From positions 9,963 to 73,962 of IMG/VR virus record IMGVR_UViG_3300009788_001732: 64,000 nt of DNA. One strand, written 5' to 3'. A program made the translations under genes and the position numbers. Of this stretch, positions 1,469-47,583 are shown one piece after another. The stretch comes from a virus (Duplodnaviria > Heunggongvirae > Uroviricota > Caudoviricetes). How positions within the stretch are numbered: the stretch's first letter is position 1; the number at the start of each line of letters is the position of its first letter. The notes under the pieces are model-generated. The model was given only the letters and a program-made list of their open reading frames with translations. It was not told the DNA's origin and did no database searches.

Positions 1469-1469
1469 T

Positions 1470-3306: not shown

Positions 3307-3315
3307 AGTATTACT

Positions 3316-4443: not shown

Positions 4444-4500
4444 TTGTTTCCTTGATCAAGTGTCTAATGACAAATTGATTGGGCACCTAACCTTGTCACA

Positions 4501-6674: not shown

Positions 6675-6677
6675 GAG

Positions 6678-7232: not shown

Positions 7233-7236
7233 TTGG

Positions 7237-10388: not shown

Positions 10389-10426
10389 TCTTTTATTTTA
10401 GCAGAATCAGACTTTCTTGTCAAGCA

Positions 10427-10451
10427 TAAAAAACTCCGCACAAAGGCGGAG
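10427..10451 (-). terminator. rho-independent terminator
   Basis: On the minus strand, the stem cuccgc/gcggag with a 6-nt loop is followed by a U-run (plus-strand aaaaaactccgcacaaaggcggag). It sits between the ParB-like gene end and the polymerase gene start. Confidence 0.6.
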
Positions 10452-10478
10452 TATTCAATAAAACTACAGTATGGCGGA

Positions 10479-11456: not shown

Positions 11457-11496
11457 CCACCGGCGGCTTCGCGGTTACCCGGCCCGCTCTAACTTG

Positions 11497-12039: not shown

Positions 12040-12575
12040 TAGAATTCGTACCCGTGTTTCACCAATTCATCGTTGAACTTTTCCTGAATCAATTGAATAA
12101 GCCCGGGCCTATAGTAAGTTTGGTATGGGCGGGGTTTCTTTGGTCCTACTTGCTCAAGTTGAGGTTTCGGAAATCCATTGTTCACCAGTGCGTCGGTGAA
12201 ATCTTGTTCGATGCGCTCGTACCGAAGGATAACGGTGGACAATGGGGCGTACTTCCAAAACAGTTCGTAACGAGTACGATCAGGGTTTCGGCGAATCCAT
12301 TCCGATTTACGACAGAGCTTCGGTACGTAGCGATCGAACGTTTCAGGACAGTGATTAAGATACCAGAAGGAAACAAACCAATCAAAGGGATTTCTCACCG
12401 ATGACATAATTAGGTCGCCCTCCTGGACTACTGTCCTGAAGGTTGAAATATCATGGTGGCTAACGTGAATTACTGCGCCAAGCCGCTGCATTGCATTCTG
12501 GCAAGCTTTGGATGCTGTCCGAGGCATCGCAAGAAAATGCGCGCGGCGTTCGCCGAAGTAAAGTGTGTACATCAC
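12039..12575 (-). CDS. sulfotransferase-fold protein, paralog 2
   Basis: AMPRTASKA and SSVRNPFDWFVSFW. It is co-linear with paralog 1 (HHISVT/HHDIST; LFWRYHE/LFWKYAP; C-terminal KYGY/KHGYEF), and the start/stop overlap at 12039. Confidence 0.5.
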   Translation of the reverse strand: MMYTLYFGERRAHFLAMPRTASKACQNAMQRLGAVIHVSHHDISTFRTVVQEGDLIMSSVRNPFDWFVSFWYLNHCPETFDRYVPKLCRKSEWIRRNPDRTRYELFWKYAPLSTVILRYERIEQDFTDALVNNGFPKPQLEQVGPKKPRPYQTYYRPGLIQLIQEKFNDELVKHGYEF

Positions 12576-20373: not shown

Positions 20374-20392
20374 GTTGTTGCCCTATGCAAAG

Positions 20393-20464
20393 CTGTGCAG
20401 GAAGGATTTGAACCTTCATCGTAGCGGTTAACAGCCGCCCGTCTTACCATTAGACCGCCGCACA
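20393..20464 (-). tRNA. tRNA-Asn (anticodon GTT)
   Basis: Manual cloverleaf: acceptor tgtgcgg/ctgcaca (one G-U), D-arm gtct-aatggta-agac, anticodon arm ggcgg-ctGTTaa-ccgct, T-arm gaagg-ttcaaat-ccttc, 72 nt, no encoded CCA. Confidence 0.65.
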
Positions 20465-20948
20465 TCAAATAGGCTCTTGTTTTCTGTACTCATACCAATT
20501 ACTGCGTTTACGATTCAAGTTACATAATGCCTCGTCACGCTGTCTCTCAGTATTGTAGCGCCGATACACGCACCAATCAACGCAAACCCACGTTTGTCGA
20601 CCACAGTAACGGAACTCAATGGCAAATAGCTTTTTCTTAGATTTCTTCCTCCGCGGACGTTCTCGTTCCTCAATCTGAGGTCCTTTATCGCGGAGAGCTT
20701 CCCAATCATTCCGACTCATGTTTCTGGCACGCCCTTTCGGCTGGACCACGCTTACTATGCCGACTGATGATTGACTCGCCGCCAGCTATATTAACTGCAT
20801 AGTATCTAGTCCCCATCCCTGGGAGTTTTCCAACACTTTCGACTATCTTATAAAGACCACAGCGTGACCTCCAAGTGCGTCGTTTTGCACAAGGTGTTTC
20901 ATCTTTCTGTGCCCTCATCCAATCGAGCTTCTGCTTTGTCTTGGACAT
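20465..20948 (-). CDS. two overlapping small ORFs; possible degenerate homing-endonuclease-like gene
   Basis: ORFs 20706..20948 and 20465..20749 overlap in different frames. The first has CGLYKIVESVGKLPGMGTRYYAVNIAGGE, which is loosely GIY-YIG-like. The pair lies between tRNA genes. Confidence 0.25.
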
Positions 20949-21018
20949 CTTGAAGTACCCTACAGCAGTTTCGATCCGCTTTCTCCGGGATGAAAGCCCG
21001 ACGACATAGCCATTAGTC
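20947..21018 (-). tRNA. tRNA-Glu (anticodon TTC), candidate
   Basis: Manual fold: acceptor gccctac/gtagggt (G-U closing), anticodon arm tcggg-ctTTCat-cccgg, T-stem agcgg/ctgct (one G-U) with an atypical T-loop atcgaaa, D-stem only 3 bp. Confidence 0.45.
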
Positions 21019-21046
21019 CAGTAGGGCTGAAGCTAGCGGAGGGACT

Positions 21047-21119
21047 TGAACCCACAACCTGCTGATTACAAATCAGCCGCTCTGCCAATTGAGCTACGCT
21101 AGCTTATATGGCGATTGGT
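21047..21119 (-). tRNA. tRNA-Thr (anticodon TGT)
   Basis: Manual fold: acceptor gctagcg/cgctagc, D-arm gctc-aattggca-gagc, anticodon arm gctga-ttTGTaa-tcagc, T-arm with one T-T mismatch, 73 nt. Confidence 0.65.
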
Positions 21120-27688: not shown

Positions 27689-27717
27689 TTGACATTCTTG
27701 CTGATTCAAATTACAAT
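27689..27717 (+). promoter_or_regulatory. near-consensus sigma70-type promoter
   Basis: TTGACA (27689-27694), 17-nt spacer, TACAAT (27712-27717), immediately after the primase stop and upstream of the gene starting at 27742. Confidence 0.5.
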
Positions 27718-27741
27718 TGAATGTTGAGAGGAGCGACCTTA

Positions 27742-28266
27742 ATGAAAAAGAGCGACCACACTATGCACGACGATCCGAGGACGGCCGAGCGTATACTCTG
27801 TAATGTCACTAGCACAAAGAACGCTAATACTGACCGCGATGATGTTATGCACGGCGATTTAGCTAGCACAGCGAAGGGGAGTGGCGCCCGCCGAAGTATT
27901 GGCAAGCTTTCTTTATCACTTGTACCTTTTCATCTCTTGGCTGGATGTTGCCGAGTTTTCATGGGCGGTAAGATTAAATATGCCGAGTGGAACTGGGCTA
28001 AAGGGATGAAATGGTCATATTGTTTCGACTGTACGCTGCGCCACCTATTTAAATGGTGGTTCTGTGGCGAAGATATTGATCCAGAGTCTGGCGAGCATCA
28101 CCTGGATCATGTACTTTGCAATCTGTTTATGCTTCGCCACTATGTGACCAATTACAAGGAGGGAGATGACCGTCCGCCAACCTACGCCGGGTTTTCAAAC
28201 TCTATGGATGATTTCTCGAAGTTATTTGACGAAGAAGATTACAAACGACGCAATGGTTACACATAA
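27742..28266 (+). CDS. hypothetical protein
   Basis: GAGGAG SD 7 nt upstream of ATG 27742; the Cys/His/Trp-rich core has no motif I can name confidently. Confidence 0.4.
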   Translation: MKKSDHTMHDDPRTAERILCNVTSTKNANTDRDDVMHGDLASTAKGSGARRSIGKLSLSLVPFHLLAGCCRVFMGGKIKYAEWNWAKGMKWSYCFDCTLRHLFKWWFCGEDIDPESGEHHLDHVLCNLFMLRHYVTNYKEGDDRPPTYAGFSNSMDDFSKLFDEEDYKRRNGYT

Positions 28267-28877
28267 TGGCACGTCCAGGTTTTATACATCTTAACGGCCA
28301 TATCCTTGCCGGTGTCGATGTTGAAACAACTGGCAGTGTTCCTGGCTGGCATGAAATTATTCAAATAGGCGTCCAGCCATTGAATTCCCATTGTGATCCG
28401 ATGCCCAACGTGAGTCCATTCTACTTTACAATCAAACCAGAGCATCCGGAGAGGGCCGAACCAAAGGCCACGGCTGTTCATAATCTAGACCTTAATGATA
28501 TCTGCCTTCATAGCCCTGATAAATGGCAAGTGTCTGATTATCTAGAAGAGTGGTGGACCAATTTAGAGTTGCCTCTACGGAAAACCATCATTCCGGTTGC
28601 ACAGAACTGGCAGTTTGAGGCGGGCTTTTTGAAACACTGGTTAGGAATTGAGTCATTTAATCAATTTTTCTATTGGGCTGTTCGGGACACAATGGCGATC
28701 GCTATTTATCGAAACGACCTTGCCTATTCGCGCGGCCTCGCCGTACCATTTCCGAATGTCGGACTCACATCATTGTGTAGCAAGTTTGGAATCATCAATG
28801 AGAATCCTCACGACGCCCTAGCCGATGCGCGCGCCGAAGCGGCCGTGTATAAACAACTGATAGAGATGGGCAAATGA
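28266..28877 (+). CDS. DEDDh 3'-5' exonuclease (DnaQ-like)
   Basis: Exo I GVDVETTG and Exo III HDALADARAEAAVY. Confidence 0.8.
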   Translation: MARPGFIHLNGHILAGVDVETTGSVPGWHEIIQIGVQPLNSHCDPMPNVSPFYFTIKPEHPERAEPKATAVHNLDLNDICLHSPDKWQVSDYLEEWWTNLELPLRKTIIPVAQNWQFEAGFLKHWLGIESFNQFFYWAVRDTMAIAIYRNDLAYSRGLAVPFPNVGLTSLCSKFGIINENPHDALADARAEAAVYKQLIEMGK

Positions 28878-29575
28878 CAGACAACAAAGATGTCACACGT
28901 ATGTCAATTAACAAACATACGGGTGAATTTGTTTCTAGTGGTACAAAACAACCCCCGCCTGAATGGATTCCTTCGGGATGGGTTCAAATTGCTGTCAATC
29001 GGTGGGGGCCGCGGTGGCCGGCGTGTATTTATCGCCGCCTTAATGTAATTCCGTGGCAAGGAAAGCCGCCAGAGGTCCAGGCTCTATGTATCAAGTACAA
29101 CAACTATGGGGAAGAGATTGTGCATCAAACTTGCATGGGCTGTACTGTGTACAAAGCGCCGCAAGGTTTGACTCTTAGTCTACCGTCCGATGTGAGTATT
29201 GATGATCTATTCAAACGCACTTGGCGAAAACCACTTCATGGAGGGGGTGAAGCGATATACAAATACTCTCATCCATTAGATGCCTTTGAGGAAGATGAGC
29301 TGGACGCTTTAGAGGAGCGGACACTACAATTGGAGATGTTGACAGCACCTAAACCAACATATGATCCTAAGCACAGCAGCAGAGTGCAAAATAAATGGAA
29401 GATTCCGTGCATCCATCGTATATCGGTACCAAAGACAGATGTCGAAATACAGGACTGCGGGGGCTGTACAAGTTTGTATAATATTGTTTGTAGTCAGCCT
29501 GAAGCAAAACACTTCGGTAAGAAATTACGTCGTAAACTGTGTGCTGAATGCCCCCTCGCAGAGGAAGCCAAATGA
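28874..29575 (+). CDS. Cys-rich hypothetical protein
   Basis: Several CxxC pairs (CMGC, CGGC, CAEC); 233 aa. Confidence 0.4.
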   Translation: MTDNKDVTRMSINKHTGEFVSSGTKQPPPEWIPSGWVQIAVNRWGPRWPACIYRRLNVIPWQGKPPEVQALCIKYNNYGEEIVHQTCMGCTVYKAPQGLTLSLPSDVSIDDLFKRTWRKPLHGGGEAIYKYSHPLDAFEEDELDALEERTLQLEMLTAPKPTYDPKHSSRVQNKWKIPCIHRISVPKTDVEIQDCGGCTSLYNIVCSQPEAKHFGKKLRRKLCAECPLAEEAK

Positions 29576-30139: not shown

Positions 30140-30343
30140 ATGAGCTTTCCAACGAAGCCAATGCCAGAGGAAACTTGCGGAAACCATTGTCCGTTATGCG
30201 GAAAGTTTGGGCATGATGCAGGGGCTGCATCATATAAGGACCACTGTTGTCCAGAGTGTGGCATACTATGGAATAATAATGACTTGGTAGTCGACTTCAC
30301 TGACACCCCACTGAGCTGCAAGAGTGATAAGAACCACGACTGA
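30140..30343 (+). CDS. small zinc-ribbon protein
   Basis: CGNHCPLCGKFGH ... CCPECG; AGGAG SD 8 nt upstream of ATG 30140. Confidence 0.35.
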   Translation: MSFPTKPMPEETCGNHCPLCGKFGHDAGAASYKDHCCPECGILWNNNDLVVDFTDTPLSCKSDKNHD

Positions 30344-30380
30344 CGGCCGGGTGAGCCAGATATATCAGTAACAATTTTAG

Positions 30381-31703
30381 TCAACCTTCGCTGCCGCCCT
30401 CGCCACCCTCGTCATCTTCGTCACAAGGCCCGCCATCTTCAGGATTAAAATCGTCAAATGTCCGTGGCGGGAAAAGCTTTATTCTCACTTCATAAGTTAT
30501 TGGACCTGGAAAAGGATGTGGTCCACAAGTGGTAGTGTCATCGGGATCACAGTCCCCGGGGTCGCACGCACCTCCATCTTTTGTACAGCAGCATCTAAAT
30601 ATAGCCGCGCATTCGCATCCAGTGCCGCGATGTTCCTGAGCCACTATTCGATCATCGTAAGTATAGAACCCCTTGTAACGTGTCGAGAAGTCTTGTTGAT
30701 TTGGATTCCCTGTAAACAAGCGTTGTCTTTGTAGCTCCCAACTAGTGTCACAACTACCGAAGCAGTTGTCACACTCAAAGTTTTGGTCTTTCATTTCCTC
30801 ACATGAGCAATTGGAAGGGCCGCCAGCGGGGTTTGAATCGGGCAGAAGATCAATCAAACAGGCTCCACAAACAGTGTCATCACAACAGCTAGACCAACAA
30901 TTGCGGAGATCATCTGATAAACCGGTCCACGAACTTTCATGTGAATCACGCTGCCCTTCTAACACTTCCTTATCGGACTCCCTTTCTTGCTTCTCTTCTT
31001 CTTTCTCTTCTTTTTCATCTTCTTTCTCTTCCTTCTCGTCTTCCTTCTCGTCTATCTGAGCTTGAATCGAGGCGCGGCATGCGTCTCCAGACGCACCTGG
31101 ACCGCACTCCGATAACGCAGCTTCAAGCTGATCTATGTCCTCCTCAAGCTGATCTATTTCATCTTGTAGATCATCAATCTCTTCTTGAAGTTCTTCAATC
31201 TGAGCTTCAAGTCTACAAACCCTAAACAAATCGCTTCTCCATTTAAGATAATCAATGAGAGGTTTGTCCAGTGGCGAGCATTCATTACTTTGGCACCCCG
31301 CACAAAAGTCGTTTGGGCAAGGTGTATCACATCCTACACAGCACTCTTCGGAACCTATAAAGTGGTCAAATTCATCTGCGGCATTTGAGCATTGCTTACA
31401 GCAAGTGTCTCCGCAGTCACACCACGCTTCACCGAGTTGATCTTCAATGTCCTCAATGATGGACAGCTTCCATAATTCAGGGATCGACTCAAACTCAAAG
31501 CAATCCCCCGGCATCTCATTCAACCGGTCATGAATTTCTTCGATATCCTCCTTGCTCCATATATGATCTGCTGGCGGCGGTTCAATCGGGGGCAATGCAT
31601 CACAGCCGGGTTCCGGATTTTCCAGCTCCTCATTCACTTGGTCAAGAAGCTCTTGCCAAGAGTTGGCCCCCTCACGTCGATATGGTGCTGCTGTATTAGC
31701 CAT
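30381..31703 (-). CDS. highly acidic Cys-rich protein with central coiled coil (function unknown)
   Basis: About 50 Cys in three blocks (CDCGDTCCKQC..., CWSSCCDDTVCGAC..., GCECAAIFRCCCTKDGGACDPGDCD), a leucine-zipper-like heptad EELQEEIDDLQDEIDQLEEDIDQLE, and a KE-rich low-complexity run. Confidence 0.5.
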   Translation of the reverse strand: MANTAAPYRREGANSWQELLDQVNEELENPEPGCDALPPIEPPPADHIWSKEDIEEIHDRLNEMPGDCFEFESIPELWKLSIIEDIEDQLGEAWCDCGDTCCKQCSNAADEFDHFIGSEECCVGCDTPCPNDFCAGCQSNECSPLDKPLIDYLKWRSDLFRVCRLEAQIEELQEEIDDLQDEIDQLEEDIDQLEAALSECGPGASGDACRASIQAQIDEKEDEKEEKEDEKEEKEEEKQERESDKEVLEGQRDSHESSWTGLSDDLRNCWSSCCDDTVCGACLIDLLPDSNPAGGPSNCSCEEMKDQNFECDNCFGSCDTSWELQRQRLFTGNPNQQDFSTRYKGFYTYDDRIVAQEHRGTGCECAAIFRCCCTKDGGACDPGDCDPDDTTTCGPHPFPGPITYEVRIKLFPPRTFDDFNPEDGGPCDEDDEGGEGGSEG

Positions 31704-31711: not shown

Positions 31712-32284
31712 CTAGTCTTCATCAGCAATACGACTTGTATCCGCGCCGAGAACTTTGTAAACACGGCATGTACTGAAATCCGTCAATCCTGCTCGGTCTA
31801 CATAAACGCCAAACTGACGGAGTTGCTTTCGACAATTAGCAGTTAATTTCTTAGTAAACTCCCCCTCTACGCCGAGTGAAATTGATTCCAACAAACCGTC
31901 GAGTTTTTGTTGCATTACTTCTTCGAGTATCGCGGCCATAGTGATGTCACTAACGGTAGAGTCTACGTCCCAATTCTTTTCGCCAATGGCTTGAATCACA
32001 TCATTGATATGGTACACAACAAAACCGCCCGCGACGACTTGTTTTTGATCCTTTGTCATTAACACTTGTGTTGCGAAATTAACAGTTTGCCGAGCAATAA
32101 CAATTGTCTCAATGTCGGTTAGTAAGGGCCAGTACCATGTACGGCGACCTCTGTTAATCTCAACTAACTTCCCGCCCACTTTCCATTTCACAGCTTGGTG
32201 TGTATTACGAACAATAACAATGCGCGGAATAAATTGTAGTAGGCCCTCAAAGATTTGACCCAACCATCCGAATGCAGTTTCCAT
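31712..32284 (-). CDS. SPFH/band-7 domain protein
   Basis: The pattern ...QAVKWKVGGKLVEI...TIVIARQTVNF.TQVLMTKDQKQVVAGGFVVYHINDV...LDGLL... follows the stomatin/HflK-C SPFH fold. Confidence 0.5.
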   Translation of the reverse strand: METAFGWLGQIFEGLLQFIPRIVIVRNTHQAVKWKVGGKLVEINRGRRTWYWPLLTDIETIVIARQTVNFATQVLMTKDQKQVVAGGFVVYHINDVIQAIGEKNWDVDSTVSDITMAAILEEVMQQKLDGLLESISLGVEGEFTKKLTANCRKQLRQFGVYVDRAGLTDFSTCRVYKVLGADTSRIADED

Positions 32285-32287: not shown

Positions 32288-34993
32288 TTATTCACCCTTT
32301 AAGAACGCGGTACCGGCTCCAAACTTGTCCCCACTCCCGTCAAACTTAAAGTCAAACTCACCTTCTTCACCTTCACCAGACTTCCAAAAGGCATCTGTTC
32401 TGCCTTTCAATTTACCGGACGTAATCTCACTAAAGAATGAATCCAAAGTTGTTACCTGACCAGGATTCTGTGAGTCTCCAATTTCAGTCGCACGAATGTC
32501 AATCCAGAACGTGCCCCCCGGGTCAGTAATCTGTCCTTCATTGATACCGGGCGTTGGAGGCGGCGGTATTCCTTGGTTCGCGTTGCCAGACGCATTTGAA
32601 TCTGGCGTACCTGGGCTAGTATCATTTCTGTCAGACGGTGTTTTACCGCCCGCGTCTCGTTTCAAGTTTCCACCAGCACTATGAACATTTGGATCGGCGA
32701 CATTATTAAATGTTACAGTGGCACCTTGCTTACGTCCTACTCGATTGATGTTTCCACTCGCACTATTCCCAGGACCATCGCCGCCCTCAAAGCCCGCCGC
32801 CTGAGCAATCTGGTCCGGCCACTGTATGAACGTGTCAATATTCTGTGGATATGCTGCTTCATACTGTTCCATATCACCAGAACGAACGCCGGTCCACACG
32901 ACGATGTCCAGTGTATTTTCATTCGGGTTGTAAGTTGCTTCTTCAACATACGCCAGTACGGGGTCGTTTGAGGCGTAGTCACCATCAAAGTCTAGCGTCA
33001 CACCATCAAATGTTTCGACATTTAGCGCATCTAGCGCAGCTTGGAATGATAATTTCTTCCACGTATGACCACGCCGATTGATCCAAAAAGATAACGTCTT
33101 GACTACAGCAGCCAGGTAGTTGTAAGCATAGAAGTCGATGGTCTGTTCATGAGTTCCATACTTCTTCACATTGTATCGAATAACAACTTTATTGTCTTCA
33201 TCTTGAGCACCGTGGGCTCGCCAAGTAGCGGCGTATTTTGTCACAAGGTCTTCCGTGCTAGTGAAGCCTAATTCAATGCTCTGTGTTAAAACATTATTTT
33301 CACTAAACGTAAATGTCGAGGGCTGTGCTGCCGGTAGATATCGGCAAAAGAATTTTCCACTCTTAATATATACTGCCGTGCGTGACATGAAGGCTAGTTC
33401 CTTCAATACAGTCACGATATTCTTCTTCTGTGTCAAACAAAAGTGCATTGGGTATGCAGCAAGTGCAGAGCGACACGTATTAAATGATGCTGTATCGGCT
33501 GGGATATCTGCGTACTTACCAATCAAGTACAACATAATATCAATTGGGTTCGGCCCAACGGCCGATTTATAAGTTACATAGATTGTGTCTTCAAACGGCG
33601 GCACACGCTTAGACAGTGCATCAGTTACTCGAACGACTTTGACATTAACGCCCCCATAACTCTGTGTGAATACTGTGTACAAGTTGCGCGGTACATCAAC
33701 TAATACACGCTCACCGCTCTCAAAGGTAGCGAACGCTGTCACTTTCAGCACTGTGCCGGGTGTGATACTTATAAAGTATCGGATGGGTTCGTTTGAGAAT
33801 ATTGTTACTGATGAACCCCCCTGAGCGAAGAATGCGCCTGCTTGATCACCCGGAATGTTTCCAGTTGGGATAAAGAATGTATCCCCGCCGACTTGAGTTG
33901 CGCTGAAACCTTCGGCAAAGGGGAAAGTTTTACATGTGCCGACTGCACAGCCAGGGTTACCACACGGGGTAGAGTTGAGATGAAAGTTCTTTCTCTCTGG
34001 GTGGTCTGAACAAGACACGTGAAATATATTTGACCCCGCCCGACCTTGTGTTCCACTGAATGATCCAGTGAATACGCCCCCATTGATAAGCAGTTTGAGG
34101 GTACCACGAGGAAAATGTTCACCGCCAATGACTCGGAATGAATTACGTTCCGTACTTTTCTGTGCAGCCAGCAATTCAGTCAAGCTTAAAATCTCTTGCT
34201 CTTTTTGGGCCGCTTGAGCAAAGAATGCATTGGCTTTGTTTTCTAATTGTTGTTTGGCCTGACCCAGGCCCAAAATGCCAGCAAAGCCTGCGGCAGTGGC
34301 GTAAAGAATACCTAGGCTAGTGAGAAATGTTTTAATGGTCTCATGTGCGGCTAAGGTAGATGGAATTGTGAAATCATGTAAACCCACCGGGTCGGCTAAC
34401 GAACCATTATGTTTGAAGTCTACTTGAATTGCTTTTTGATGAACACTGGTACCGAAGCACTCCGGCCATAACTTGCCTACCATATCATTTGGTAGGTCGG
34501 GGAAGTTACCTTCTTCTGGTGAGAAACCAACATCTTTATCTTCGAGTTGAGATACCGCATTAAATTTCACTGTGCGGTCAGTCTCACTCCATGTAATTGG
34601 CGAGTTGATCTTACCTTGAAAGACTAGGAATCGATCTTCCCATTCAAGGCCCTCAAACCATTGATAAATTTTCACATCCCTCAACATGATATCGTTAACA
34701 TCAATAATGTCTTTGATACTATTGTCAGTATCATCTAGCACCAAAGAAACTTCTTCTGAAGTTTCATTCAGAGAGATTGCGACCACAGAATCGACAGTGC
34801 CAATCTCCATGATTTTACCCGGCACATTGATCTGCGATATGCCCCCTTGTGAGGGCGCTGAGATGTCTTTGGTTGCATACTGAATAAATGTTTGGCTGCC
34901 TACCACCCACGCAATCTCTACGATGACGACTGGCTCTGTCGCATGCGTCTGTGCTAGTTTAGCCAATGAGGCTTGTGAAATTTGTCGTGCCAT
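32288..34993 (-). CDS. large tail/baseplate structural protein
   Basis: 901 aa in the distal tail gene block; no specific motif. Confidence 0.45.
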   Translation of the reverse strand: MARQISQASLAKLAQTHATEPVVIVEIAWVVGSQTFIQYATKDISAPSQGGISQINVPGKIMEIGTVDSVVAISLNETSEEVSLVLDDTDNSIKDIIDVNDIMLRDVKIYQWFEGLEWEDRFLVFQGKINSPITWSETDRTVKFNAVSQLEDKDVGFSPEEGNFPDLPNDMVGKLWPECFGTSVHQKAIQVDFKHNGSLADPVGLHDFTIPSTLAAHETIKTFLTSLGILYATAAGFAGILGLGQAKQQLENKANAFFAQAAQKEQEILSLTELLAAQKSTERNSFRVIGGEHFPRGTLKLLINGGVFTGSFSGTQGRAGSNIFHVSCSDHPERKNFHLNSTPCGNPGCAVGTCKTFPFAEGFSATQVGGDTFFIPTGNIPGDQAGAFFAQGGSSVTIFSNEPIRYFISITPGTVLKVTAFATFESGERVLVDVPRNLYTVFTQSYGGVNVKVVRVTDALSKRVPPFEDTIYVTYKSAVGPNPIDIMLYLIGKYADIPADTASFNTCRSALAAYPMHFCLTQKKNIVTVLKELAFMSRTAVYIKSGKFFCRYLPAAQPSTFTFSENNVLTQSIELGFTSTEDLVTKYAATWRAHGAQDEDNKVVIRYNVKKYGTHEQTIDFYAYNYLAAVVKTLSFWINRRGHTWKKLSFQAALDALNVETFDGVTLDFDGDYASNDPVLAYVEEATYNPNENTLDIVVWTGVRSGDMEQYEAAYPQNIDTFIQWPDQIAQAAGFEGGDGPGNSASGNINRVGRKQGATVTFNNVADPNVHSAGGNLKRDAGGKTPSDRNDTSPGTPDSNASGNANQGIPPPPTPGINEGQITDPGGTFWIDIRATEIGDSQNPGQVTTLDSFFSEITSGKLKGRTDAFWKSGEGEEGEFDFKFDGSGDKFGAGTAFLKGE

Positions 34994-39961: not shown

Positions 39962-41074
39962 TTATGCTACATGACGAACGCCAAACTGGGCGTTATTTAT
40001 ATCTTTCACAGTCCACTGCTGTCCGTTGCGTGGTTCAGTTTCAAAAATTGATGCCTCTCCAAAATAAACATCTTCAATTCTTGATTTGTTAGAAAGTGAA
40101 CTAGCGTTAAGTGGAAATAGCCCCACCGATTCTTTATTCTTAGATCGAACAATGTTGTTCAATCCCCTTGGTTCGCCTGCGTTGGTAATCTTTACAATGG
40201 GATGTACTAGGACGCCAAAGATTGGTGTGCTTAATTCTGAAGGCAACTCTGCATATTTGAATAATTCTGTGTTATCAATTATACCAGTTTCTACATAATC
40301 GGTATCTTCAGGCACCGCTGTGAATGGAACATCATCGATGTGAGCTACATGATCTGCGCCTGTGTTCTTTGACCATTGTGTGAAATCTCCATCAGCCACG
40401 GGTAAAATAGTTTCAATAGCTACATCACCCAAGAAATCATTGTTTATTGTGCCGCCAGTATCACAAATATAAAGATCATCAGTCAGCGCGTTTAGAGACA
40501 TCCGAGTGAAATCGAGTCTAAGAGTATCCCATCCCTCTCCGGATATGTCTGCTGAATCAAGAGTTGTTGCTGACTCCCATACAATTTGTCCATTAAGACG
40601 CATGATAATGAAACCAGTGGTATCGTTAGTTCTGATCTTAACTTCCATGTAATACCAAGTATTCAAATTGATTAAGTCAGCCGGGCTTGTAGCCAGCAGC
40701 GTGCCATTCGCTCGTAAGAATCGGAACGTATTGTCACTGGTTTCATAGCGCACAACACTTTGTGAGTCTACTCCCAGCATCACAGAAATCCAATTGGCAT
40801 TATCAACGAAGGCAGTTCCAATCTTCACTGCAAAACCTATGATAAGATCATTGTCATTATTGCGATCTCGAAGAGAAGTAAATTGTTGAAACTGTCCGTT
40901 GGCGCCCCATTGCAAAGCATTTCCACGACCTCCTCGGCCAGTTACAACTTGTGCATCGGTGCCGAGCAAAACGTCAATTTCTCGACGCGCTTTTGATACC
41001 ATTGTATCTTCAAAGACTTGCCCAGTTAAAGACTGATCAAGCCATTCATAACCGTCTAACCATAGCAGAGACAT
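39962..41074 (-). CDS. tail-fibre-like paralog family B, member 3
   Basis: Shares N-terminus MSLLWLDGYEWLD and C-terminal ...AQFGV... with the next two genes. Confidence 0.45.
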   Translation of the reverse strand: MSLLWLDGYEWLDQSLTGQVFEDTMVSKARREIDVLLGTDAQVVTGRGGRGNALQWGANGQFQQFTSLRDRNNDNDLIIGFAVKIGTAFVDNANWISVMLGVDSQSVVRYETSDNTFRFLRANGTLLATSPADLINLNTWYYMEVKIRTNDTTGFIIMRLNGQIVWESATTLDSADISGEGWDTLRLDFTRMSLNALTDDLYICDTGGTINNDFLGDVAIETILPVADGDFTQWSKNTGADHVAHIDDVPFTAVPEDTDYVETGIIDNTELFKYAELPSELSTPIFGVLVHPIVKITNAGEPRGLNNIVRSKNKESVGLFPLNASSLSNKSRIEDVYFGEASIFETEPRNGQQWTVKDINNAQFGVRHVA

Positions 41075-42219
41075 TAGGGCATCTCCACGCCGAACTCGGC
41101 GCTATCGATTTCGGCTGGCGTCCATGCGGCAGCCGTATCAGGATTCTGTTCAAAGACAGTTTGATTAGTAAACATATCATTAGTTTGATCATGACGCACA
41201 GTGTGATCAACACGGCTTTCGGTGATATTTTCTCTTGCTACGATTCCTAACGCAAGAGGCTGCTCGGCAGTGATACGTCTCCATGTAGAAACTTGAACAC
41301 CGTGGATCAATGAGGCAGTAGCAAGAGTTGATAGATTTTCGTATGTAAACAAAGACTTCTCGCCCGTCGCGTCTCCTTCCAAATAGTCTGCTTCATCTAT
41401 CGGCGTAGTCATTGATTGGGCTTCGTCCACTAAAGCAGAATGATTAGTGCCGGAGCTAGGTGTAAATGTGGACGTTGTACCATCGGCGTCTGGGTTAAGA
41501 AATTCAACTACGGTGTCTCCTAGATAATCATTATTGACGGTCCCCGAGCCATCGAGGATATACACGTCGTCTAAGAGCGTATTAGTTGCTAAGGCAGAAA
41601 GTTCTATTTGAACACCATCCCAGTAAAAATCGCCCGCAAACACCTTGGTGTCATACGTACCGGCAGTCCAAACGGTTGTGCCATCGATCTTAAATTCCCA
41701 CGTGCCTAATGAATCATGAATGCGCCATTTTATCTCAAGATACATCCAACCTTGGTTTACAAAGAACAGCACGGGACTTTCTTCAAGAAATGTCACGTCA
41801 TCACGGTATGCCGATACTGTTCCGGTCTGGTTGATACGAAATGTTAGGTTGTCTCTACCGCCGGTGTAAACACCAAAGAAAGTATCATTGTTGCCGATAA
41901 CAGTATCATTGTGCAGCTTAATACGCATGCCACAAACACCGATCTGGTCGACAGTTTGATCGCGAAGTGAGCCTGTACGAATAAGCTGTGCAATATTTCC
42001 AAATTGAAGTGCATTTCCGCCGTGTGCTCCCGTGACTGAGATACCATCTTCAAATGTCAGTAGGTCTACAAGAGCCCATTTACGTCGCAATAAATCGGCG
42101 TAATTTATAGATGTGATTGTTGGAAATACATCTGCGTAATCGAATGAGTCCAAGAATAATAGTGACATTATCCTACCTCCACTCCGGCTTGGAGTGCATT
42201 CAAATTTGCGATTGTCCAA
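41074..42219 (-). CDS. tail-fibre-like paralog family B, member 2
   Basis: MSLLFLDSFDYAD...EIDSAEFGVEMP. Confidence 0.45.
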   Translation of the reverse strand: MDNRKFECTPSRSGGRIMSLLFLDSFDYADVFPTITSINYADLLRRKWALVDLLTFEDGISVTGAHGGNALQFGNIAQLIRTGSLRDQTVDQIGVCGMRIKLHNDTVIGNNDTFFGVYTGGRDNLTFRINQTGTVSAYRDDVTFLEESPVLFFVNQGWMYLEIKWRIHDSLGTWEFKIDGTTVWTAGTYDTKVFAGDFYWDGVQIELSALATNTLLDDVYILDGSGTVNNDYLGDTVVEFLNPDADGTTSTFTPSSGTNHSALVDEAQSMTTPIDEADYLEGDATGEKSLFTYENLSTLATASLIHGVQVSTWRRITAEQPLALGIVARENITESRVDHTVRHDQTNDMFTNQTVFEQNPDTAAAWTPAEIDSAEFGVEMP

Positions 42220-43265
42220 GCGACTGCTGTATCTGGGTCAGTATCTCGGACATTGAATAGACTCTCAAATGTTTGGCCTGCAATTGCTTGAGCCGCTTCT
42301 GGGTAATTTATGCCGCCTGACTTGAGTGCGTTTATGAGAGTAAAGTCACTCGCGTCTGTTTCTCGTACCACTGAGTTGATTTGAATACCATGAACAGCCG
42401 TGTAGTTTGTTGATAGGTCATCGTAAGTGAACAAGGTCCTGTTTGTTGATACAGTATCTTGTATGTAATCACTATCATCATCATGCGGGGCTGTTTCATT
42501 TACTAGAGCGAAACTGTCAATGCCGCTGCTAGTCGTCCAAGCTTCGTCATCGCCGTCTGCATCTGGATGCAATGATTTGAATGTCGTTTGTCCAGGGTAA
42601 TTTGTGAGATCGCCGCCGTCGTTATCCCACGCAATGCAGCCTGCATATTGTGTACGATTAGCTCCGCCTAGGAGGCCATGAATTTGAATTGCGGAAAAGT
42701 CCCCGTTACCAGCGTTGCGGGTGTCGACACCCGCCACTGTCCAGATAGTGGAGCCGTCGACTCGAAATTCGTATGAACCTGTTGAATCATTGATGACTGT
42801 TTTATATTCCACCCAGTACCATTGGTTGGTCTCAAAGATAAAATCGGTAATGGTTTCAATAAAAGTGGTCCCTAGATACACAGAAATAGTGCCGGAAGAA
42901 TCCATTCTTGCATTGATATGAAACCGGTCGCCTAAGGAATCAACAAGTCCGAACCACGAAACAGGGGTTCCCCAGCCTATTGTGCTAAGTCCACGGAACC
43001 AAAAACCCATTCCAACTTCAGCAGTTGAGGTAGTAGTCTTGGGTAGTGGTAAACGTATGACATGTGATGTCTCAGCAAAGGATAGAGCAGCACCATTGCC
43101 GCCGACACCCGCAACAGTTGTTGCATCATCTGCGGCTGTGAAATTGAAATTATCTCCGCGCCCTTTTCTATTCCCTAAATGAGTATCCAATTGAGGACCG
43201 CTTAACCCGATATCCAACCAATCAAAAGATTCAACAAGTAATAGTGCCATTATTCCCCGCTCCAA
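42168..43265 (-). CDS. tail-fibre-like paralog family B, member 1
   Basis: MALLLVESFDWLD...LNALQAGVEVG. Confidence 0.45.
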   Translation of the reverse strand: MERGIMALLLVESFDWLDIGLSGPQLDTHLGNRKGRGDNFNFTAADDATTVAGVGGNGAALSFAETSHVIRLPLPKTTTSTAEVGMGFWFRGLSTIGWGTPVSWFGLVDSLGDRFHINARMDSSGTISVYLGTTFIETITDFIFETNQWYWVEYKTVINDSTGSYEFRVDGSTIWTVAGVDTRNAGNGDFSAIQIHGLLGGANRTQYAGCIAWDNDGGDLTNYPGQTTFKSLHPDADGDDEAWTTSSGIDSFALVNETAPHDDDSDYIQDTVSTNRTLFTYDDLSTNYTAVHGIQINSVVRETDASDFTLINALKSGGINYPEAAQAIAGQTFESLFNVRDTDPDTAVAWTIANLNALQAGVEVG

Positions 43266-44164
43266 GAAAATAGTTTGGCAAAGAAATTAGGCGGATTAGC
43301 TGCACCTGTTTTTCCATCCACAATCCAACAAATTTCATCTGGTCCACCGGCCATAAAAGTTATTCGACCGAAAGTTGCATACTCGATGAAATCAATCCCG
43401 TTCTTCGAGAGTCTGAACTTTAGGTCTGTGTTATTATCCTCAATTTCAAACCAAATGATACCGCTTCGTGCCTGTTGCCACTCTACAGCAGTGCCAAACG
43501 TGCCGTTTAACACAGTAGGGCTGTCGAAGTTGAAACCGTTGATATTAGAAGTCTCGTCGACACGGTTGCAAATAAAACTCAATTCACCAGTCGAATTTTC
43601 TCGGAAACCAAGCCCTACGAAAGGTCCATTGACTGCATTAGTGATAGTGCTTTGGATCATTGCCGCGCGGATCGTATATGGCGGTGTTGGTGCAGCTCGT
43701 AAAAGTACGCGGATATCGTTTGCTACTGTTTGAGGGTGTTCACAAACAATATTGCCATTTGCGTCAGTGCTATATGTAGCTGTGCCTAGGTTCACTTCTG
43801 TGAAGTTGGTATTATCAATGGTTGCTTGAGTAGAGTTAACAAGGCGATACGGCGATCTTATCCCAGCCAACGGATCGCTAAAATCTTTTACACGTTGAAG
43901 CAACGCATCTGTTGTAAGAATTGCCTTAACGGCCGCCCCCGATACATGGGCTACACCAGTGGTACTTTCGATGCCGCGAACTACAGTAAACACAGAGCCA
44001 GAGACAGCCGTTACTAGCAGCAACTCTTGTTCAATTAAGAGTCGAAAATCACCCTCAGTTGGAAACAGGGAAGTATCAAAAACAGTCAAAGAAGTTGCGA
44101 CATCTGTGATTGCACCGTTCAAGGATGTAACGGCGCTGTTTACAAATCGTTCTTGGCGTGCCAT
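43250..44164 (-). CDS. paralog family C, member 4 (tail-associated)
   Basis: Conserved N-terminus R(E/Q)RxxNxA...FPxEGxFRxxIxxEIMLVTAxSGNxLTVxRG and C-terminal VW(F/L)xxEDDxTD(L/I)xFR(L/V)SxDGxNF. Confidence 0.45.
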   Translation of the reverse strand: MARQERFVNSAVTSLNGAITDVATSLTVFDTSLFPTEGDFRLLIEQELLLVTAVSGSVFTVVRGIESTTGVAHVSGAAVKAILTTDALLQRVKDFSDPLAGIRSPYRLVNSTQATIDNTNFTEVNLGTATYSTDANGNIVCEHPQTVANDIRVLLRAAPTPPYTIRAAMIQSTITNAVNGPFVGLGFRENSTGELSFICNRVDETSNINGFNFDSPTVLNGTFGTAVEWQQARSGIIWFEIEDNNTDLKFRLSKNGIDFIEYATFGRITFMAGGPDEICWIVDGKTGAANPPNFFAKLFSWSGE

Positions 44165-45084
44165 TATGATTCATCCCATGCTACGAGTGTTGTTTGGAGA
44201 GGGACGGGATTACCAAAGTTATTGACTGAGATACCAATCTGGTCTGGAGTCAAAAATGTTAGGCGTGCTTCACGACCAATCTCGATGAAGTTTATCCCAT
44301 CTGCTGACAATCGAAAGATCAAATCGGTGTTATCGTCTTCTACTTGAAACCACGTGACGTTTCGGCTACTACCGCTCCAAAAGTCGCCTGGAATGAAGGC
44401 TGTTGCTGTCGCTGTCGGGCTGTTGAATTTGAAAACATTCGCCTTAATCGCGTCTAAACCTGATTGCCCAAAGTGATAGAATTCTCCGGTCATATCATCA
44501 CGAACACAGGCCCCGCAGGTCGGAAGATCAGACGCAGAGTCTGGTACAAATAAGTTTGGGATGAATCCAACTGTCCAGACCCATGGTGCAGCCGGAGCTG
44601 CAATAACCATGAGTCCAAAGTTATTTGCCGCACCCTGAGCCTGCTTTTCGACTAAAATCGAACCTTGTGACTGATCTGTCTTGGATGTAGTTCCATCGCC
44701 AGCAAAATTAATATCGGCGAAACTTGTGCTTGTTAAAACACCTCCAGCAGCATTGATCAACTGATGAGGGATAGCATTTGAGTCATCAAAGAACGGATTA
44801 TTCCAATCTCGCTGCATTCGTTGAATGCCCTCGCGGGTGATAATCTGGGCGACGTTAGCGCCGTCAGTGTGTGCAGCAGCAAGGCTTGACTCGGCACCCC
44901 GCGTGACAGTCAAGCTGTTACCGGCGATTGCAGTCACCAACATTATTTCCGAATCAATGATGATTCGGAACTGTGGGAGCGGCGAGAACACACTGGCATC
45001 GGCAACTGCGACCGTTGTAGTCGAGTTATCAATGGTACCGTTAAGTAAGGTCACCGATCCATTTTCAATACGTTCTCGCGCCAT
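44164..45084 (-). CDS. paralog family C, member 3
   Basis: Same conserved blocks; start/stop overlap with its neighbours. Confidence 0.45.
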   Translation of the reverse strand: MARERIENGSVTLLNGTIDNSTTTVAVADASVFSPLPQFRIIIDSEIMLVTAIAGNSLTVTRGAESSLAAAHTDGANVAQIITREGIQRMQRDWNNPFFDDSNAIPHQLINAAGGVLTSTSFADINFAGDGTTSKTDQSQGSILVEKQAQGAANNFGLMVIAAPAAPWVWTVGFIPNLFVPDSASDLPTCGACVRDDMTGEFYHFGQSGLDAIKANVFKFNSPTATATAFIPGDFWSGSSRNVTWFQVEDDNTDLIFRLSADGINFIEIGREARLTFLTPDQIGISVNNFGNPVPLQTTLVAWDES

Positions 45085-45087
45085 TGT

Positions 45088-45981
45088 TTACTCCTGCCAT
45101 GCCAATAATTGTACGTAGCCTTCATTGGTGCTCAAATTATTGATTGATATCCCCACTTGATCAGGCGCTCCACCTAATTCCACCGTGCGCCCTTGTGAAA
45201 AAATGTCAATGAAATAGATACCGTCGAAGGATACTCGCATTTGTAAGTCCACTCCATCATCTTCTAATTTGAACCAAACGATTCCAGCGGGACTGGGCTC
45301 AAATCGTCTAAATGCATTCACTCCATTCTGAAAGACATCTCCAAGGTTGTGCTCAACTCGCCATCGTTCACTAAGCTGGTCAAATGGACGATGCCGCCAA
45401 TTAAGAGTTGAGTTATTTGATGAGCGTCTAAAATGAGGCCCATAGATTCCACCTTCGGCACCCGTGACAGATACTGCGTTGAGTCGATATGCTCCTGTAA
45501 TCACATATGGAGTCGCAAGGGTGGGTCGTACAATCTGTGAGATTGTTGTTATTGCACTGTTAGGTTGTCGCATAATGATGGCCCCGCCAGGGTCATCGGT
45601 CAGTGTCAATGTCGATCCATTAACAACTGTAAAGTCTGAGGATGTTATAATGTTCCCATTTGTATCGGCGATTCGGAATGAGGGGCGTTGCGGCGACATT
45701 GGGAAGCATTGCTCAGCCAAAAATCGATCAATGCTTCCTTGGGCTATAACTGCCCGTACCTGAGAACCATTTACATGATTAACACTATCAGCACGAATCA
45801 CTGTGAAGGTGTTTCCACTTACTTGTGTAACAACCATAATTTCATTGTCAACAATGACATGGAATACACCCTCAGTTGGAAAATCAGAGGCGTTCAATAC
45901 AGAGATGCTAGTATCACTGGGGGCCGATGGTGCTGACAATACAGTTTCCGCACTGTTAGGAATTCGTTGTTGTGCTACCAT
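45088..45981 (-). CDS. paralog family C, member 2
   Basis: Same conserved blocks. Confidence 0.45.
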   Translation of the reverse strand: MVAQQRIPNSAETVLSAPSAPSDTSISVLNASDFPTEGVFHVIVDNEIMVVTQVSGNTFTVIRADSVNHVNGSQVRAVIAQGSIDRFLAEQCFPMSPQRPSFRIADTNGNIITSSDFTVVNGSTLTLTDDPGGAIIMRQPNSAITTISQIVRPTLATPYVITGAYRLNAVSVTGAEGGIYGPHFRRSSNNSTLNWRHRPFDQLSERWRVEHNLGDVFQNGVNAFRRFEPSPAGIVWFKLEDDGVDLQMRVSFDGIYFIDIFSQGRTVELGGAPDQVGISINNLSTNEGYVQLLAWQE

Positions 45982-46901
45982 TACTCACCGTCCCAAGCCA
46001 CCAGATTAACATATACATCGTGAGCTGTCACATCAGGGTTAATTACGAACCACCCTACTCGATCAGGTCCAGCACCTGTAAAACTTGCACCACGAAGTTC
46101 ATTGTGAAACTCTAGAAAATTCACTCCGTCTGTTGATAGTCGGAAGTAGATGCTCGTACCATCGTCTTCAATTTGCAGCCATACAGTTGCAGACGGCGAT
46201 GGTTCAGATCGTAAGGTTGTAATAATCGCCGAGTCAAAAACTTCAGCTATATATTTATTTATCCCCAGCCGACTTCCCAGCGCGTCAAACGGTCGATGAT
46301 GAATTACTAGTGTTTCATCGTTTACAGTTTCTCTGAAATAAATTCCAAGTGCCGGACCATCTTGAGCCGTATCTGAGACGCCAGTCATTCGTACAGCGGC
46401 AGTAATGATGTAGGGTGTTGATGGTGCATTACGTTCCAAACGTACAAGACGAACTGTCGGAGAGGGCGCAAGGAATTGAATGGTAATACTTCCATCGGCA
46501 TTATCTGAGATGGTTGCATTTGTTGTTGTAATCTCTGTGAAATCAGCCTTTGTCAAAAGATTTCCATTTGTATCTTGAATACGATACGGCGGTCGAGAAA
46601 ATGCAAACGGGTCTACACTCTCTCGAATAAGGATTTCCAATGCAGATTTGGTTAACGAATTGATTACTGTGGCGTCCATCGAATGGTTAGTGGCAACTGT
46701 ATTTTCTACACCGCGTACTACAGTTAGTGTGTTGCCTGAACGAGCTGTAACAAGCATAATTTCGTTATCTATAACGACACGGAAGTCACCTTCGGCAGGG
46801 AAATTACTGCCATTGATAAGAACTACAGCAGTCGCAGAAGTATTGATACTTGCGGCTAATGTAGATTCGGCATCGTTTGCAATTCGTTCTCTGCGAACCA
46901 T
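45981..46901 (-). CDS. paralog family C, member 1
   Basis: Same conserved blocks. Confidence 0.45.
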   Translation of the reverse strand: MVRRERIANDAESTLAASINTSATAVVLINGSNFPAEGDFRVVIDNEIMLVTARSGNTLTVVRGVENTVATNHSMDATVINSLTKSALEILIRESVDPFAFSRPPYRIQDTNGNLLTKADFTEITTTNATISDNADGSITIQFLAPSPTVRLVRLERNAPSTPYIITAAVRMTGVSDTAQDGPALGIYFRETVNDETLVIHHRPFDALGSRLGINKYIAEVFDSAIITTLRSEPSPSATVWLQIEDDGTSIYFRLSTDGVNFLEFHNELRGASFTGAGPDRVGWFVINPDVTAHDVYVNLVAWDGE

Positions 46902-46989: not shown

Positions 46990-47583
46990 TTGGTATACGA
47001 TTTGCTTCACTGTTTCATCATGAGAGGTAAAGAATCACGAAATGAATTGTACCGCTTGGCTGAAAACCAGCCAGACACAAACAATAAACGCCCGCGTATA
47101 CACAAATTGTCTGAAAAGCAATTGTGCAACTTTTGGAAGCGTGTTTACAAAAGTCAACAGACGTGTTGCTGGAATTGGACAGGTGGCCGCAATGGATCAG
47201 GGCGTGCAATCATCAAATTGTATGGTATCCAGATGCTCGCGCCACGTGTGTCTTATGCTTTACATAATGAAGTTGATCCTGGCCAGTGGGATGCGCTCCA
47301 TACTTGTGATAACCCCGGCTGCATCAACCCTGATCACATCTTTCTTGGTACACCACAAGACAACATGAAGGACTGCATTGAGAAAGACAGATTTGTTGCA
47401 TCTTGTGGTAATACCAAGATTAAACCGGGCTCTAAGGAAGAATCTATACTACTTGATGCATCGATACCGCCAACTGTTGCTGCGAAAATGTTAGATATAC
47501 ATCGTAAAACAGTGTGGCAACGACGCCGTGAAGCAGGAAAGGTTCCACAACCCCAGGACGGAAGCCTGGGGTGTGGAACTTAG
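46990..47583 (+). CDS. HNH homing endonuclease (HNH_3-type)
   Basis: CCWNWTGG...GYG...HTCDNPGCINPDHIFLGTPQDN; antisense to the surrounding structural genes. Confidence 0.8.
   Translation: MVYDLLHCFIMRGKESRNELYRLAENQPDTNNKRPRIHKLSEKQLCNFWKRVYKSQQTCCWNWTGGRNGSGRAIIKLYGIQMLAPRVSYALHNEVDPGQWDALHTCDNPGCINPDHIFLGTPQDNMKDCIEKDRFVASCGNTKIKPGSKEESILLDASIPPTVAAKMLDIHRKTVWQRRREAGKVPQPQDGSLGCGT

Follow-up and report, generated by a model that had tools for sequence, protein, structure and literature searches.

The window analyzed here is a stretch of 64,000 nucleotides from a virus of the class Caudoviricetes (positions 9,963 to 73,962 of IMG/VR record IMGVR_UViG_3300009788_001732), and its minus strand carries a gene for a 440-amino-acid protein, hereafter the target, that combines an extreme negative charge with an abundance of Cys. 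Sequence comparison places the target in a large, constrained, and previously undescribed phage family that is known only from metagenomes. We conclude that the target is probably not a tail part, and we tentatively favor, at a probability of roughly 40%, the reading that it is a non-virion, intracellular, metal-stabilized acidic accessory protein, which would work with a partner resembling h233 (a 233-amino-acid protein encoded nearby) and serve as a decoy for a host factor that is basic or binds nucleic acids. A role outside the virion is favored because co-transcription of the gene with exonuclease and nucleotide genes is as frequent as co-transcription with tail genes, because virion proteins are Cys-poor, because the target has no export signal, and because target and partner genes form a two-gene cassette.

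Composition of the target protein

The target contains 36 Cys residues (8.2%), compared with median Cys contents of 0.57% for the open reading frames (ORFs) of the structural arm of the window and 1.86% for those of the replication arms. Three dense Cys blocks (12 of 48 residues at positions 95 to 142, 10 of 50 at 269 to 318, and 8 of 31 at 363 to 393) are present as the first-pass annotation had described them, whereas its total of about 50 Cys was too high. The same annotation had called the protein extremely acidic, and rightly so: with 113 Asp and Glu against 34 Lys and Arg residues, the target has a net charge of −79 and an isoelectric point (pI) of ~4.05, and no other ORF in the window is as acidic (−18 per 100 amino acids versus a window median of −2.3). 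When the other ORFs of the window serve as background (1.28% Cys and 12.4% Asp plus Glu), the probability of 36 or more Cys is ~4e−18 and that of the observed Asp plus Glu content is ~3e−14; against base composition alone, the Cys content has a probability of ~1e−6. Glu by itself makes up 13.6% of the protein. Three phage tRNA genes, for Asn-GTT, Glu-TTC, and Thr-TGT, lie at 20392..21104 on the minus strand, and the tRNA-Glu is notable beside this Glu share.

The target ORF is a real gene: a GGAG Shine-Dalgarno element is located 6 nt upstream of its ATG, directly past the stop codon of the preceding SPFH gene, which the target start follows by 8 nt. Copies of identical sequence occur on 4 metagenomic contigs. 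The target sequence contains no signal peptide, transmembrane segment, or lipobox; its N-terminus (MANTAAPYRREGANSW...) is hydrophilic, and hydrophobic segments occur nowhere in the protein.

Conservation within the family

A protein search recovered 22 full-length metagenomic homologs of the target (E = 1e−121 to 5e−11), whose alignment shows a common layout: a conserved N-terminus of ~105 residues is followed by a variable Cys segment, a coiled coil with a Glu/Lys helix, a variable Cys-rich C-terminal part, a terminal DC-DGxPC motif, and an acidic, Gly-containing tail. At ~35% identity, 17 of the 36 target Cys (residues 34, 68, 95, 97, 101, 105, 125, 129, 163, 200, 209, 301, 311, 318, 363, 385, and 427) are kept in at least 80% of these close homologs, and 26 are present in at least 50% when two columns of slack are allowed. 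Pure low-complexity drift, for which the first-pass annotation had named Cys conservation in homologs as a check, is thus not borne out. Net charges of the close homologs range from −35 to −91, so that the strongly negative charge, which we examined as a feature of DNA mimics and decoys, is kept across homologs.

The N-terminal domain (N-domain) extends the family much further. A profile of approximately the first 105 residues, searched against 1.84 billion representative proteins, matched at least 402 clusters (made at 50% identity) at E ≤ 1e−3, 277 of them at E ≤ 1e−10, and in all of the best 150 matches listed the domain is N-terminal, in proteins of 93 to 561 amino acids. A word-indexed protein search with the same profile returned only 7 unannotated fragments. 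The domain consensus is ..DWNxLIxxVNxxLxNPPxxGCxP..PLxEV...HxWxKxDIxxVQDKLxETCxDIxF.....LWKQSIIDEI......AWCDCE, within which W16, N24, P30, C34, H47, W49, D53, W78, W94, C95, and C97 are invariant. Across the wider family, the median Cys content is 5.2% and the median net charge is −37.

The two parts of the protein differ in how fast they have changed. In locus L001, identity to the window is 69% for T901 (a 901-amino-acid distal tail-module protein that marks the lineage), 73% for the RNase_T exonuclease, 76% for the primase, 58% for the N-domain, and 28% for the C-terminal part, and in the other loci the C-terminal part is mostly undetectable by comparison. Overall, the N-domain is 31 to 65% identical where the C-terminal part is at most 28% identical or undetectable, a combination of conserved anchor and variable C-terminus that we examined as a feature of receptor-binding proteins. 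By these sequence comparisons, the N-domain diverges at the rate of neighboring core genes and the remainder much faster. Such a conserved N-domain joined to a fast-changing C-terminal part fits a docking module plus a part under arms-race pressure.

The Cys pattern also bears on whether the target could be a metal-handling auxiliary, similar to metallothioneins or metallochaperones, with a part in buffering Zn, Fe, or Cu or supplying these metals in the course of infection. In the family, CxC and CxxC spacings exceed those in shuffled sequences; the target's Cys blocks reach 20 to 26% Cys with CC, CxC, and CxxC spacings, and the genes of distant clades lie near metalloenzyme genes (RNR, metallophosphatase, dCMP deaminase). 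However, CC spacing does not exceed shuffles, conservation extends to only about half of the Cys positions, many non-Cys residues are conserved in a protein with a defined predicted fold, and known metallothioneins are far smaller and less acidic than the target. We therefore consider a metal-handling role very unlikely.

Genomic context of the target gene

The minus strand of the window from 64000 to 30381 is a siphovirus-type structural module with the order TerL, portal, adaptor, scaffold, P22-like coat, 1250-amino-acid tape measure, fiber-like paralogs, proteins of 1176, 473, and 901 amino acids (T1176, T473, and T901), SPFH, and target. As annotated initially, the target is the last, 3′-terminal gene of this structural operon. 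A plus-strand block (24800 to 30081) encoding a DUF5906 primase, a MazZ-like dATP/dGTP diphosphohydrolase, an RNase_T exonuclease, h233, and an AAA_33 kinase converges on it, and the left arm of the window is devoted to replication and nucleotide metabolism.

Close homologs retain this gene order. Across the synteny of 31 loci, the target gene always lies at the junction of the tail and replication modules, and it does so in two orientations; in locus L007, for instance, the gene for a 275-amino-acid homolog begins right at the stop codon of RNase_T and runs in the direction of the primase gene, converging on the tail genes. For an unbiased sample of contexts, IMG/VR loci were chosen by T901 alone (at least 121 loci, of which 80 were examined) and narrowed to the 48 non-redundant loci that extend for 4 kb or more downstream. 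The target gene shares the tail strand in 17 of the 48; in another 20 it lies on the opposite strand and is read in the direction of the RNase_T and primase genes, and 11 loci are without it. It is thus present in 77% of T901 loci and missing from 23%. Short forms of the protein (~200 to 300 amino acids) occur in both configurations, including directly after T901 on the tail strand.

The genes of distant homologs are embedded in blocks of nucleotide-metabolism and replication genes that run in the same direction, at a distance of over 10 kb from the structural genes. One of them (P0021), which has the N-domain, the same coiled-coil architecture, and a net charge of −78, lies in the order RNR-II, MazG, ThyA, gene, h233-like partner, RNA ligase, DHFR, in a block that also holds DNA ligase and PhoH. 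A second (P0107) is arranged as SNF2, metallophosphatase, gene, h233-like partner, methyltransferase, GT41, RNA ligase, and a third (P0083) as methyltransferase, gene, GT41, RNA ligase, Pol A. Consistent membership in the tail or late structural module, which we examined as a feature of fibers and receptor-binding proteins, was not found. The step taken in the first-pass annotation from tail-operon membership to a virion component, adhesin, or fiber tip is not supported by the counts of both strands or by the replication blocks of distant homologs. The operon position in a single genome misassigned the target to the tail module, and comparative context alone revealed that the gene flips between modules.

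The slot after T901 alternates among relatives between an SPFH/Band_7 gene, a ClpP-like (S14) gene of ~188 amino acids, and nothing (seen in loci that include L007, L009, L010, L011, L024, and L031), and the relative order of SPFH and target genes varies. In cellular genomes, SPFH proteins are paired with proteases of the NfeD/ClpP class, and by analogy this alternation may have a meaning. It also bears on the notion that the target acts at the cell envelope, in lysis or otherwise, either in the manner of a spanin or together with SPFH. Its place at the end of the late operon beside an SPFH membrane-scaffold protein and a sub-threshold coiled-coil match to the Rz-like spanin phrog_739 (E = 1.4e−3) would suit such a role, but SPFH is absent or replaced in many relatives, its order relative to the target is not fixed, and the distant gene contexts are replication blocks. 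Given that the target also lacks a signal peptide, lipobox, and transmembrane segment, we regard this role as essentially excluded. On the same grounds the lysis function proposed in the first-pass annotation falls away, while its options of a host-interaction factor and of metal binding come close to the reading that we favor.

A lasting proximity to T901 together with tolerance of either transcription unit would also be explained if the target were a non-virion cytoplasmic assembly factor or chaperone for distal tail proteins, by a logic like that of T4 gp57A. T4 gene 57A is located among nucleotide-metabolism genes, and the target is helical and acidic, with plausible oligomerization through its Ile/Leu heptads. 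However, the target is missing from 23% of T901-bearing loci, short forms are without the helical hairpin, and a hypervariable C-terminal part is unexpected for a chaperone of a conserved client. An assembly factor is therefore quite unlikely in our judgment.

A recurrent partner gene

The h233 gene lies 806 bp from the target gene and is convergent with it. Proteins of the h233-like family contain one or two copies of a module with the motif NPWxFxPLWPEC...C...CxxC (two in h233), are roughly neutral (median pI of 7.2, with ~8 Cys), and have no Pfam match. In the opposite-strand configuration, an h233 homolog is the small gene downstream of the target. As detected with a hidden Markov model (HMM) of the module, a partner gene lies within 2.5 kb of the target gene in 43 of 52 non-redundant loci (83%) and is immediately downstream on the same strand in 19. 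The succession of target and partner recurs in three types of arrangement, namely, the opposite-strand configuration, a tail-strand variant with the order T901-SPFH-target-partner (e.g., L051, L074, and L080), and two contexts of nucleotide metabolism that are unrelated to the others (L112 and L113). The partner family, to which h233 and the partner genes in L007, L011, L016, L019, L024, L027, L112, and L113 belong, is a near-constant companion of the target and RNase_T genes. In some members of the partner family the protein starts with MCC or MSCC, and a basic tail rich in Lys and Pro is present in one.

The junction holds a third Cys-rich gene, a 67-amino-acid ORF that had not been called as a gene and has no Pfam match. 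It lies in the ~300 bp that separate the AAA_33 kinase gene from the target stop codon. Both of these other Cys-rich genes near the target, h233 and the 67-amino-acid ORF, are on the replication strand.

Predicted structure

The AlphaFold2 model of the target has a predicted local distance difference test (pLDDT) score of 75.7 and a predicted template modeling (pTM) score of 0.61. In this model, three N-terminal helices precede a strand (residues 112 to 121) that joins strands of the C-terminal part in one sheet, and an antiparallel hairpin of two helices (residues 147 to 197 and 204 to 272) is predicted with pLDDT above 95. The C-terminal beta domain ends in a final strand, TYEVRIKLF, followed by a terminal, Cys-containing DGGPC motif.

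The outgoing arm of the hairpin is an acidic helix (~164 to 197) with Ile/Leu heptads (QIEELQE/EIDDLQD/EIDQLEE/DIDQLEA at residues 168 to 195, with Ile and Leu at positions a and d). The Lys/Glu (KE) stretch (~217 to 250) has the same 7-residue periodicity, with Lys at the a- and d-equivalent positions and no hydrophobic seam, and is modeled as the return arm of the hairpin and not as a floppy linker. Of the earlier description of a perfect acidic heptad coiled coil with a KE linker, the heptads therefore stand (four, near-perfect) and the linker does not. With no hydrophobic seam on the return helix, the Ile/Leu seam of the first helix is probably buried by oligomerization, as judged from the model. 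Both arms are encoded by 21-bp tandem repeats in the DNA, which indicates that the helices were lengthened by in-frame heptad duplication. At the apex of the hairpin, a loop holds the pair C200-x8-C209, and of the 20 homologs in which this region is present, 19 have a C-x(4-8)-C pair there.

Short-form members are without the entire hairpin segment. The model of one of them (P0046, 232 amino acids; pLDDT of 94.9, pTM of 0.71) consists of three helices and a compact beta-sandwich with one helix. Because the short forms are predicted to fold without the hairpin, the coiled coil and KE segment are an insertion into a globular core, made in the sub-lineage of the target, and not a fiber shaft. The conserved core predicted by these models is a novel three-helix N-domain plus the Cys-rich beta-sandwich.

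An intracellular protein or a virion component

We infer metal binding, intracellular action, and decoy function of the target from the observations above. In the mechanism that we propose, the target would act inside the infected cell and outside the virion, where, in the reducing cytoplasm, its cysteines would hold a structural metal, most likely Zn. The N-domain, with its invariant set of four Cys and a His, would dock on a conserved partner, for which the h233-like protein is the candidate. The fast-evolving, hyper-acidic C-terminal part and the hairpin would present a decoy surface similar to that of a nucleic acid mimic, and this surface may sequester a basic host protein or a nucleic-acid-binding factor during replication or host takeover.

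Several observations weigh against this proposal. The gene is co-directional with the tail genes in the window and in 16 other loci, and in about 10 of the 17 tail-strand loci, all with short forms, it starts 4 to 10 nt after the T901 stop codon. In a prophage-like contig of a member of the Planctomycetaceae, the target homolog keeps its place beside the tail genes, at the terminus of the element. Receptor-binding proteins, too, classically combine a conserved N-terminus and a hypervariable C-terminus. Across the family, the number of Cys is even in 99 of 150 full-length members (P = 1e−4), and this parity fits disulfides, and hence extracellular life, as well as it fits metal sites. To our knowledge, none of the known DNA mimics is rich in Cys, and all are much smaller than the target. 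Finally, h233-like partners are also found in loci that have no target, so that their linkage to the target within the T901 lineage may be partly just a shared location at the junction.

Several of these points speak for the main rival reading, a serious one, in which the target would be a virion accessory protein of the tail tip, an adhesin or receptor-binding protein, whose N-domain anchors to the distal tail (T901 or a neighbor), whose Cys-rich beta-sandwich, stabilized by disulfides or metal, is the variable binding head, and whose h233-like companion is an assembly chaperone. Throughout the T901 lineage the target adjoins T901, SPFH, or ClpP, with a 4-nt coupling to T901 in several loci; the succession of the target and a small gene resembles cassettes of a fiber and its Tfa chaperone; presence in 77% of relatives and not in all is what accessory fibers show; and there are weak fold matches to TssK and IglD. 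The type VI secretion system baseplate proteins TssK and IglD have a shoulder domain related to the shoulders of siphophage receptor-binding proteins. Against a tail-tip role, about half of the loci encode the target on the opposite strand, abutting RNase_T, and three distant clades have the gene in replication or nucleotide-metabolism blocks far from structural genes. Virion proteins of the phage are Cys-poor (the 0.57% median against 8.2% in the target), seven fiber-like paralogs are already present, and the core of the short form is predicted with high confidence as a compact monomer, unlike the typically intertwined fiber proteins. We consider a place in the tail tip somewhat unlikely.

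If the intracellular reading is true, the family would be a new class of phage host-takeover or counter-defense module that is widespread in an uncultured siphovirus lineage of ~100 to 170 kb. If the target is instead a virion protein, it would be an unprecedented Cys-dense, hyper-acidic tail component. Either way, the Trp/His/Cys N-domain (in the at least 402 clusters) and the beta-sandwich core are well-defined, confidently foldable targets that are unannotated in Pfam and PHROGs.

A host clue

The sole match to the family among 185,579 species genomes is a 12.6-kb contig (CAZISU010000062.1, locus L018) of a metagenome-assembled genome of the Planctomycetaceae, and it is the only host clue for the lineage. 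On this contig, a T1176 fragment, T473, T901, and the target homolog are followed by bacterial genes for a sigma-54 response regulator, a formylglutamate amidohydrolase, a MATCAP-like peptidase, and a glutathione synthetase. GC skew and AT skew flip at the boundary between phage and bacterial genes, and no tRNA was found at the junction. The contig is apparently a prophage-host junction with the target homolog as the terminal phage gene; a chimeric assembly is the alternative.

Cell walls of planctomycetes contain Cys-rich YTV-domain proteins (PMC8567305). The family could in principle be a new virion adhesin for hosts with such Cys-rich proteinaceous envelopes, a suggestion that we rate as highly improbable. 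In that case, a Cys-dense, hyper-acidic tail tip would attach to the Cys-rich wall by thiol-disulfide exchange or by shared metal coordination, and an oligomeric stalk would be built from the hairpin with its Ile/Leu seam and its two apex Cys.

Searches against known families

The target has no match above threshold in Pfam-A, PHROGs v4, or NCBIfam, and no additional domains were found in 91 family members. A tblastn search with the target and two divergent members gave no match in 50,697 phage genomes, and a Foldseek search of PDB and BFVD with the full-length model returned nothing at E < 1e−3. Together with the lack of a significant match among PDB sequences, these searches agree with the statement in the first-pass annotation that no characterized phage protein is like the target: no known family can be assigned by sequence or by fold, and the combination of features is unmatched among characterized phage proteins. 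The literature, searched for DNA mimics and for phage proteins that are both acidic and rich in Cys, yielded no relevant report.

Several candidate identities were rejected. Profile matches to DUF4407 (24.1 bits versus a cutoff of 31.3), DivIC, the SbcC-like phrog_77, Rad50 (24 bits versus 1087), and SMC are sub-threshold and confined to residues 160 to 265, and we attribute them to artefacts of heptads and composition; the sub-threshold match to phrog_739 mentioned above is likewise driven by the coiled coil. The top Foldseek matches (EmrA adaptors, LXG, IpaB, and the PI3K iSH2 domain) align to the helical hairpin only. The match to the virion structural protein gp35 of Goslar (PDB 11lx_Bh) rests on a W...WCDC string (hmmsearch E = 0.049; hhalign probability of 18.7%), and gp35 is neither acidic nor Cys-rich. 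DksA/Gre-type secondary-channel binders have neither profile nor fold support, and the hairpin arms of the target (~50 to 68 residues) are much longer than theirs.

Neighboring genes and feature coordinates

The two convergent transcription units end 37 bp apart (30343..30381), and neither a hairpin terminator nor an inverted repeat was detected between the two ends; scans for terminators, promoters, Rfam families, and inverted repeats around the target gave nothing informative. Neither a megablast search with the 12 kb around the target nor a tblastn search with T901 matched any of the 50,697 phage genomes. The best TerL identity is ~27%, and the lineage has no cultured relatives; because this identity is so low, the lineage cannot be placed. 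The MazZ-like dATP/dGTP diphosphohydrolase (PF18909; 27721..28266, plus strand) is encoded beside the exonuclease and primase genes, and a dCMP deaminase and an NT5C nucleotidase are encoded elsewhere in the window; together, these enzymes may hint at modified DNA bases. An ORF similar to HNH/His-Me endonucleases (46990..47583, plus strand) lies on the opposite strand within the tail module and is probably a homing endonuclease insertion. The coordinates of the target, its parts, and related features are listed in Table 1.

Table 1. Coordinates of the target gene, its segments, and associated genes (window positions, except for the last row)
Feature	Position	Strand	Description
Target ORF	30381..31703	minus	440 amino acids; ATG start; 36 Cys; net charge −79
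N-terminal conserved domain (residues 1-105)	31389..31703	minus	Three helices, each followed by conserved Cys (C34, C68, C95/C97); ends in WCDC; family-defining
First Cys-dense segment (residues 106-146)	31266..31388	minus	Conserved quartet C101/C105...C125/C129; beta-strand 112-121
Inserted antiparallel helical hairpin (residues 147-272)	30888..31265	minus	AlphaFold2 pLDDT >95
21-bp tandem repeat, 1.9 copies	31162..31201	minus	Encodes acidic Ile/Leu heptads
21-bp tandem repeat, 3.2 copies	30991..31057	minus	Encodes KE heptads of the return helix
C-terminal Cys-rich beta domain (residues 273-427)	30423..30887	minus	Conserved C301, C311, C318, C363, C385, C427
Acidic Gly-rich C-terminal tail	30384..30422	minus	DEDDEGGEGGSEG; like tails in many homologs
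SPFH/Band_7 protein	31712..32284	minus	Directly upstream of target; Pfam E = 1.4e−12
T901	32288..34993	minus	901-amino-acid distal tail-module protein; lineage marker
Seven tandem paralogs	39962..46901	minus	All Cys-poor; four of ~300 amino acids with tail-fiber-like N-termini, three phrog_2448 of ~370 amino acids
RNase_T-type (DnaQ-like) exonuclease	28266..28877	plus	Directly upstream of target in the opposite-strand configuration of relatives
h233	28874..29575	plus	233 amino acids; two-module, Cys-containing member of partner family; purpose-built HMM E = 9e−35; motif W.PxC...C...CxxC
Uncalled 67-amino-acid ORF	30140..30343	plus	Third Cys-rich gene at the junction; AGGAG ribosome-binding site; CxxxCxxC...CCxxC (zinc-ribbon-like)
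Locus L018 (CAZISU010000062.1)	1..12569		Own contig; order T1176 fragment, T473, T901, target homolog, then bacterial genes

Comparison with known systems

The target shares features with several characterized systems and differs from each of them. With lambda Stf/Tfa and T4 gp37/gp38 it shares an N-terminus that is conserved and a C-terminus that varies, a small gene immediately downstream, and, in the T901 lineage, a location next to distal tail genes; unlike them, it has no fiber repeat or PHROG tail family and is extreme in Cys, its gene is on the opposite strand in about half of the loci, and its core is predicted to be a compact monomer. The antiparallel helical hairpin with a conserved pair of Cys at its apex (C200-x8-C209) recalls the Rad50/SbcC zinc hook and twin-Cx9C (CHCH) proteins. 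The spacing at the target apex is C-x(4-8)-C in place of the CxxC of the zinc hook, however, there is no ATPase head, and the coiled-coil profile matches to Rad50, SbcC, and SMC align to the coiled-coil arm of the target and not to the hook. With metallothioneins, the target has in common a local Cys density of 20 to 26% with CC, CxC, and CxxC motifs. Metallothioneins are small, have Cys at nearly all of their conserved positions, and have no stable apo fold, whereas the target has 440 amino acids, is acidic, has invariant Trp, Asn, Pro, His, and Asp residues, and has a confidently predicted core fold.

The phage-encoded acidic DNA mimics and decoys, among them T7 Ocr, T7 gp5.9, ArdA, and lambda Gam, are small proteins (~50 to 170 amino acids). 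The target differs from them in its size and Cys content, matches none of them in Pfam, PHROGs, PDB, or BFVD, and belongs to a family in which many members are without the hairpin. What it shares with Ocr, gp5.9, ArdA, and Gam is an extreme negative charge, an acidic helical and coiled-coil surface, an accessory and fast-evolving distribution, and, in many relatives, the location of the gene among early or replication genes.

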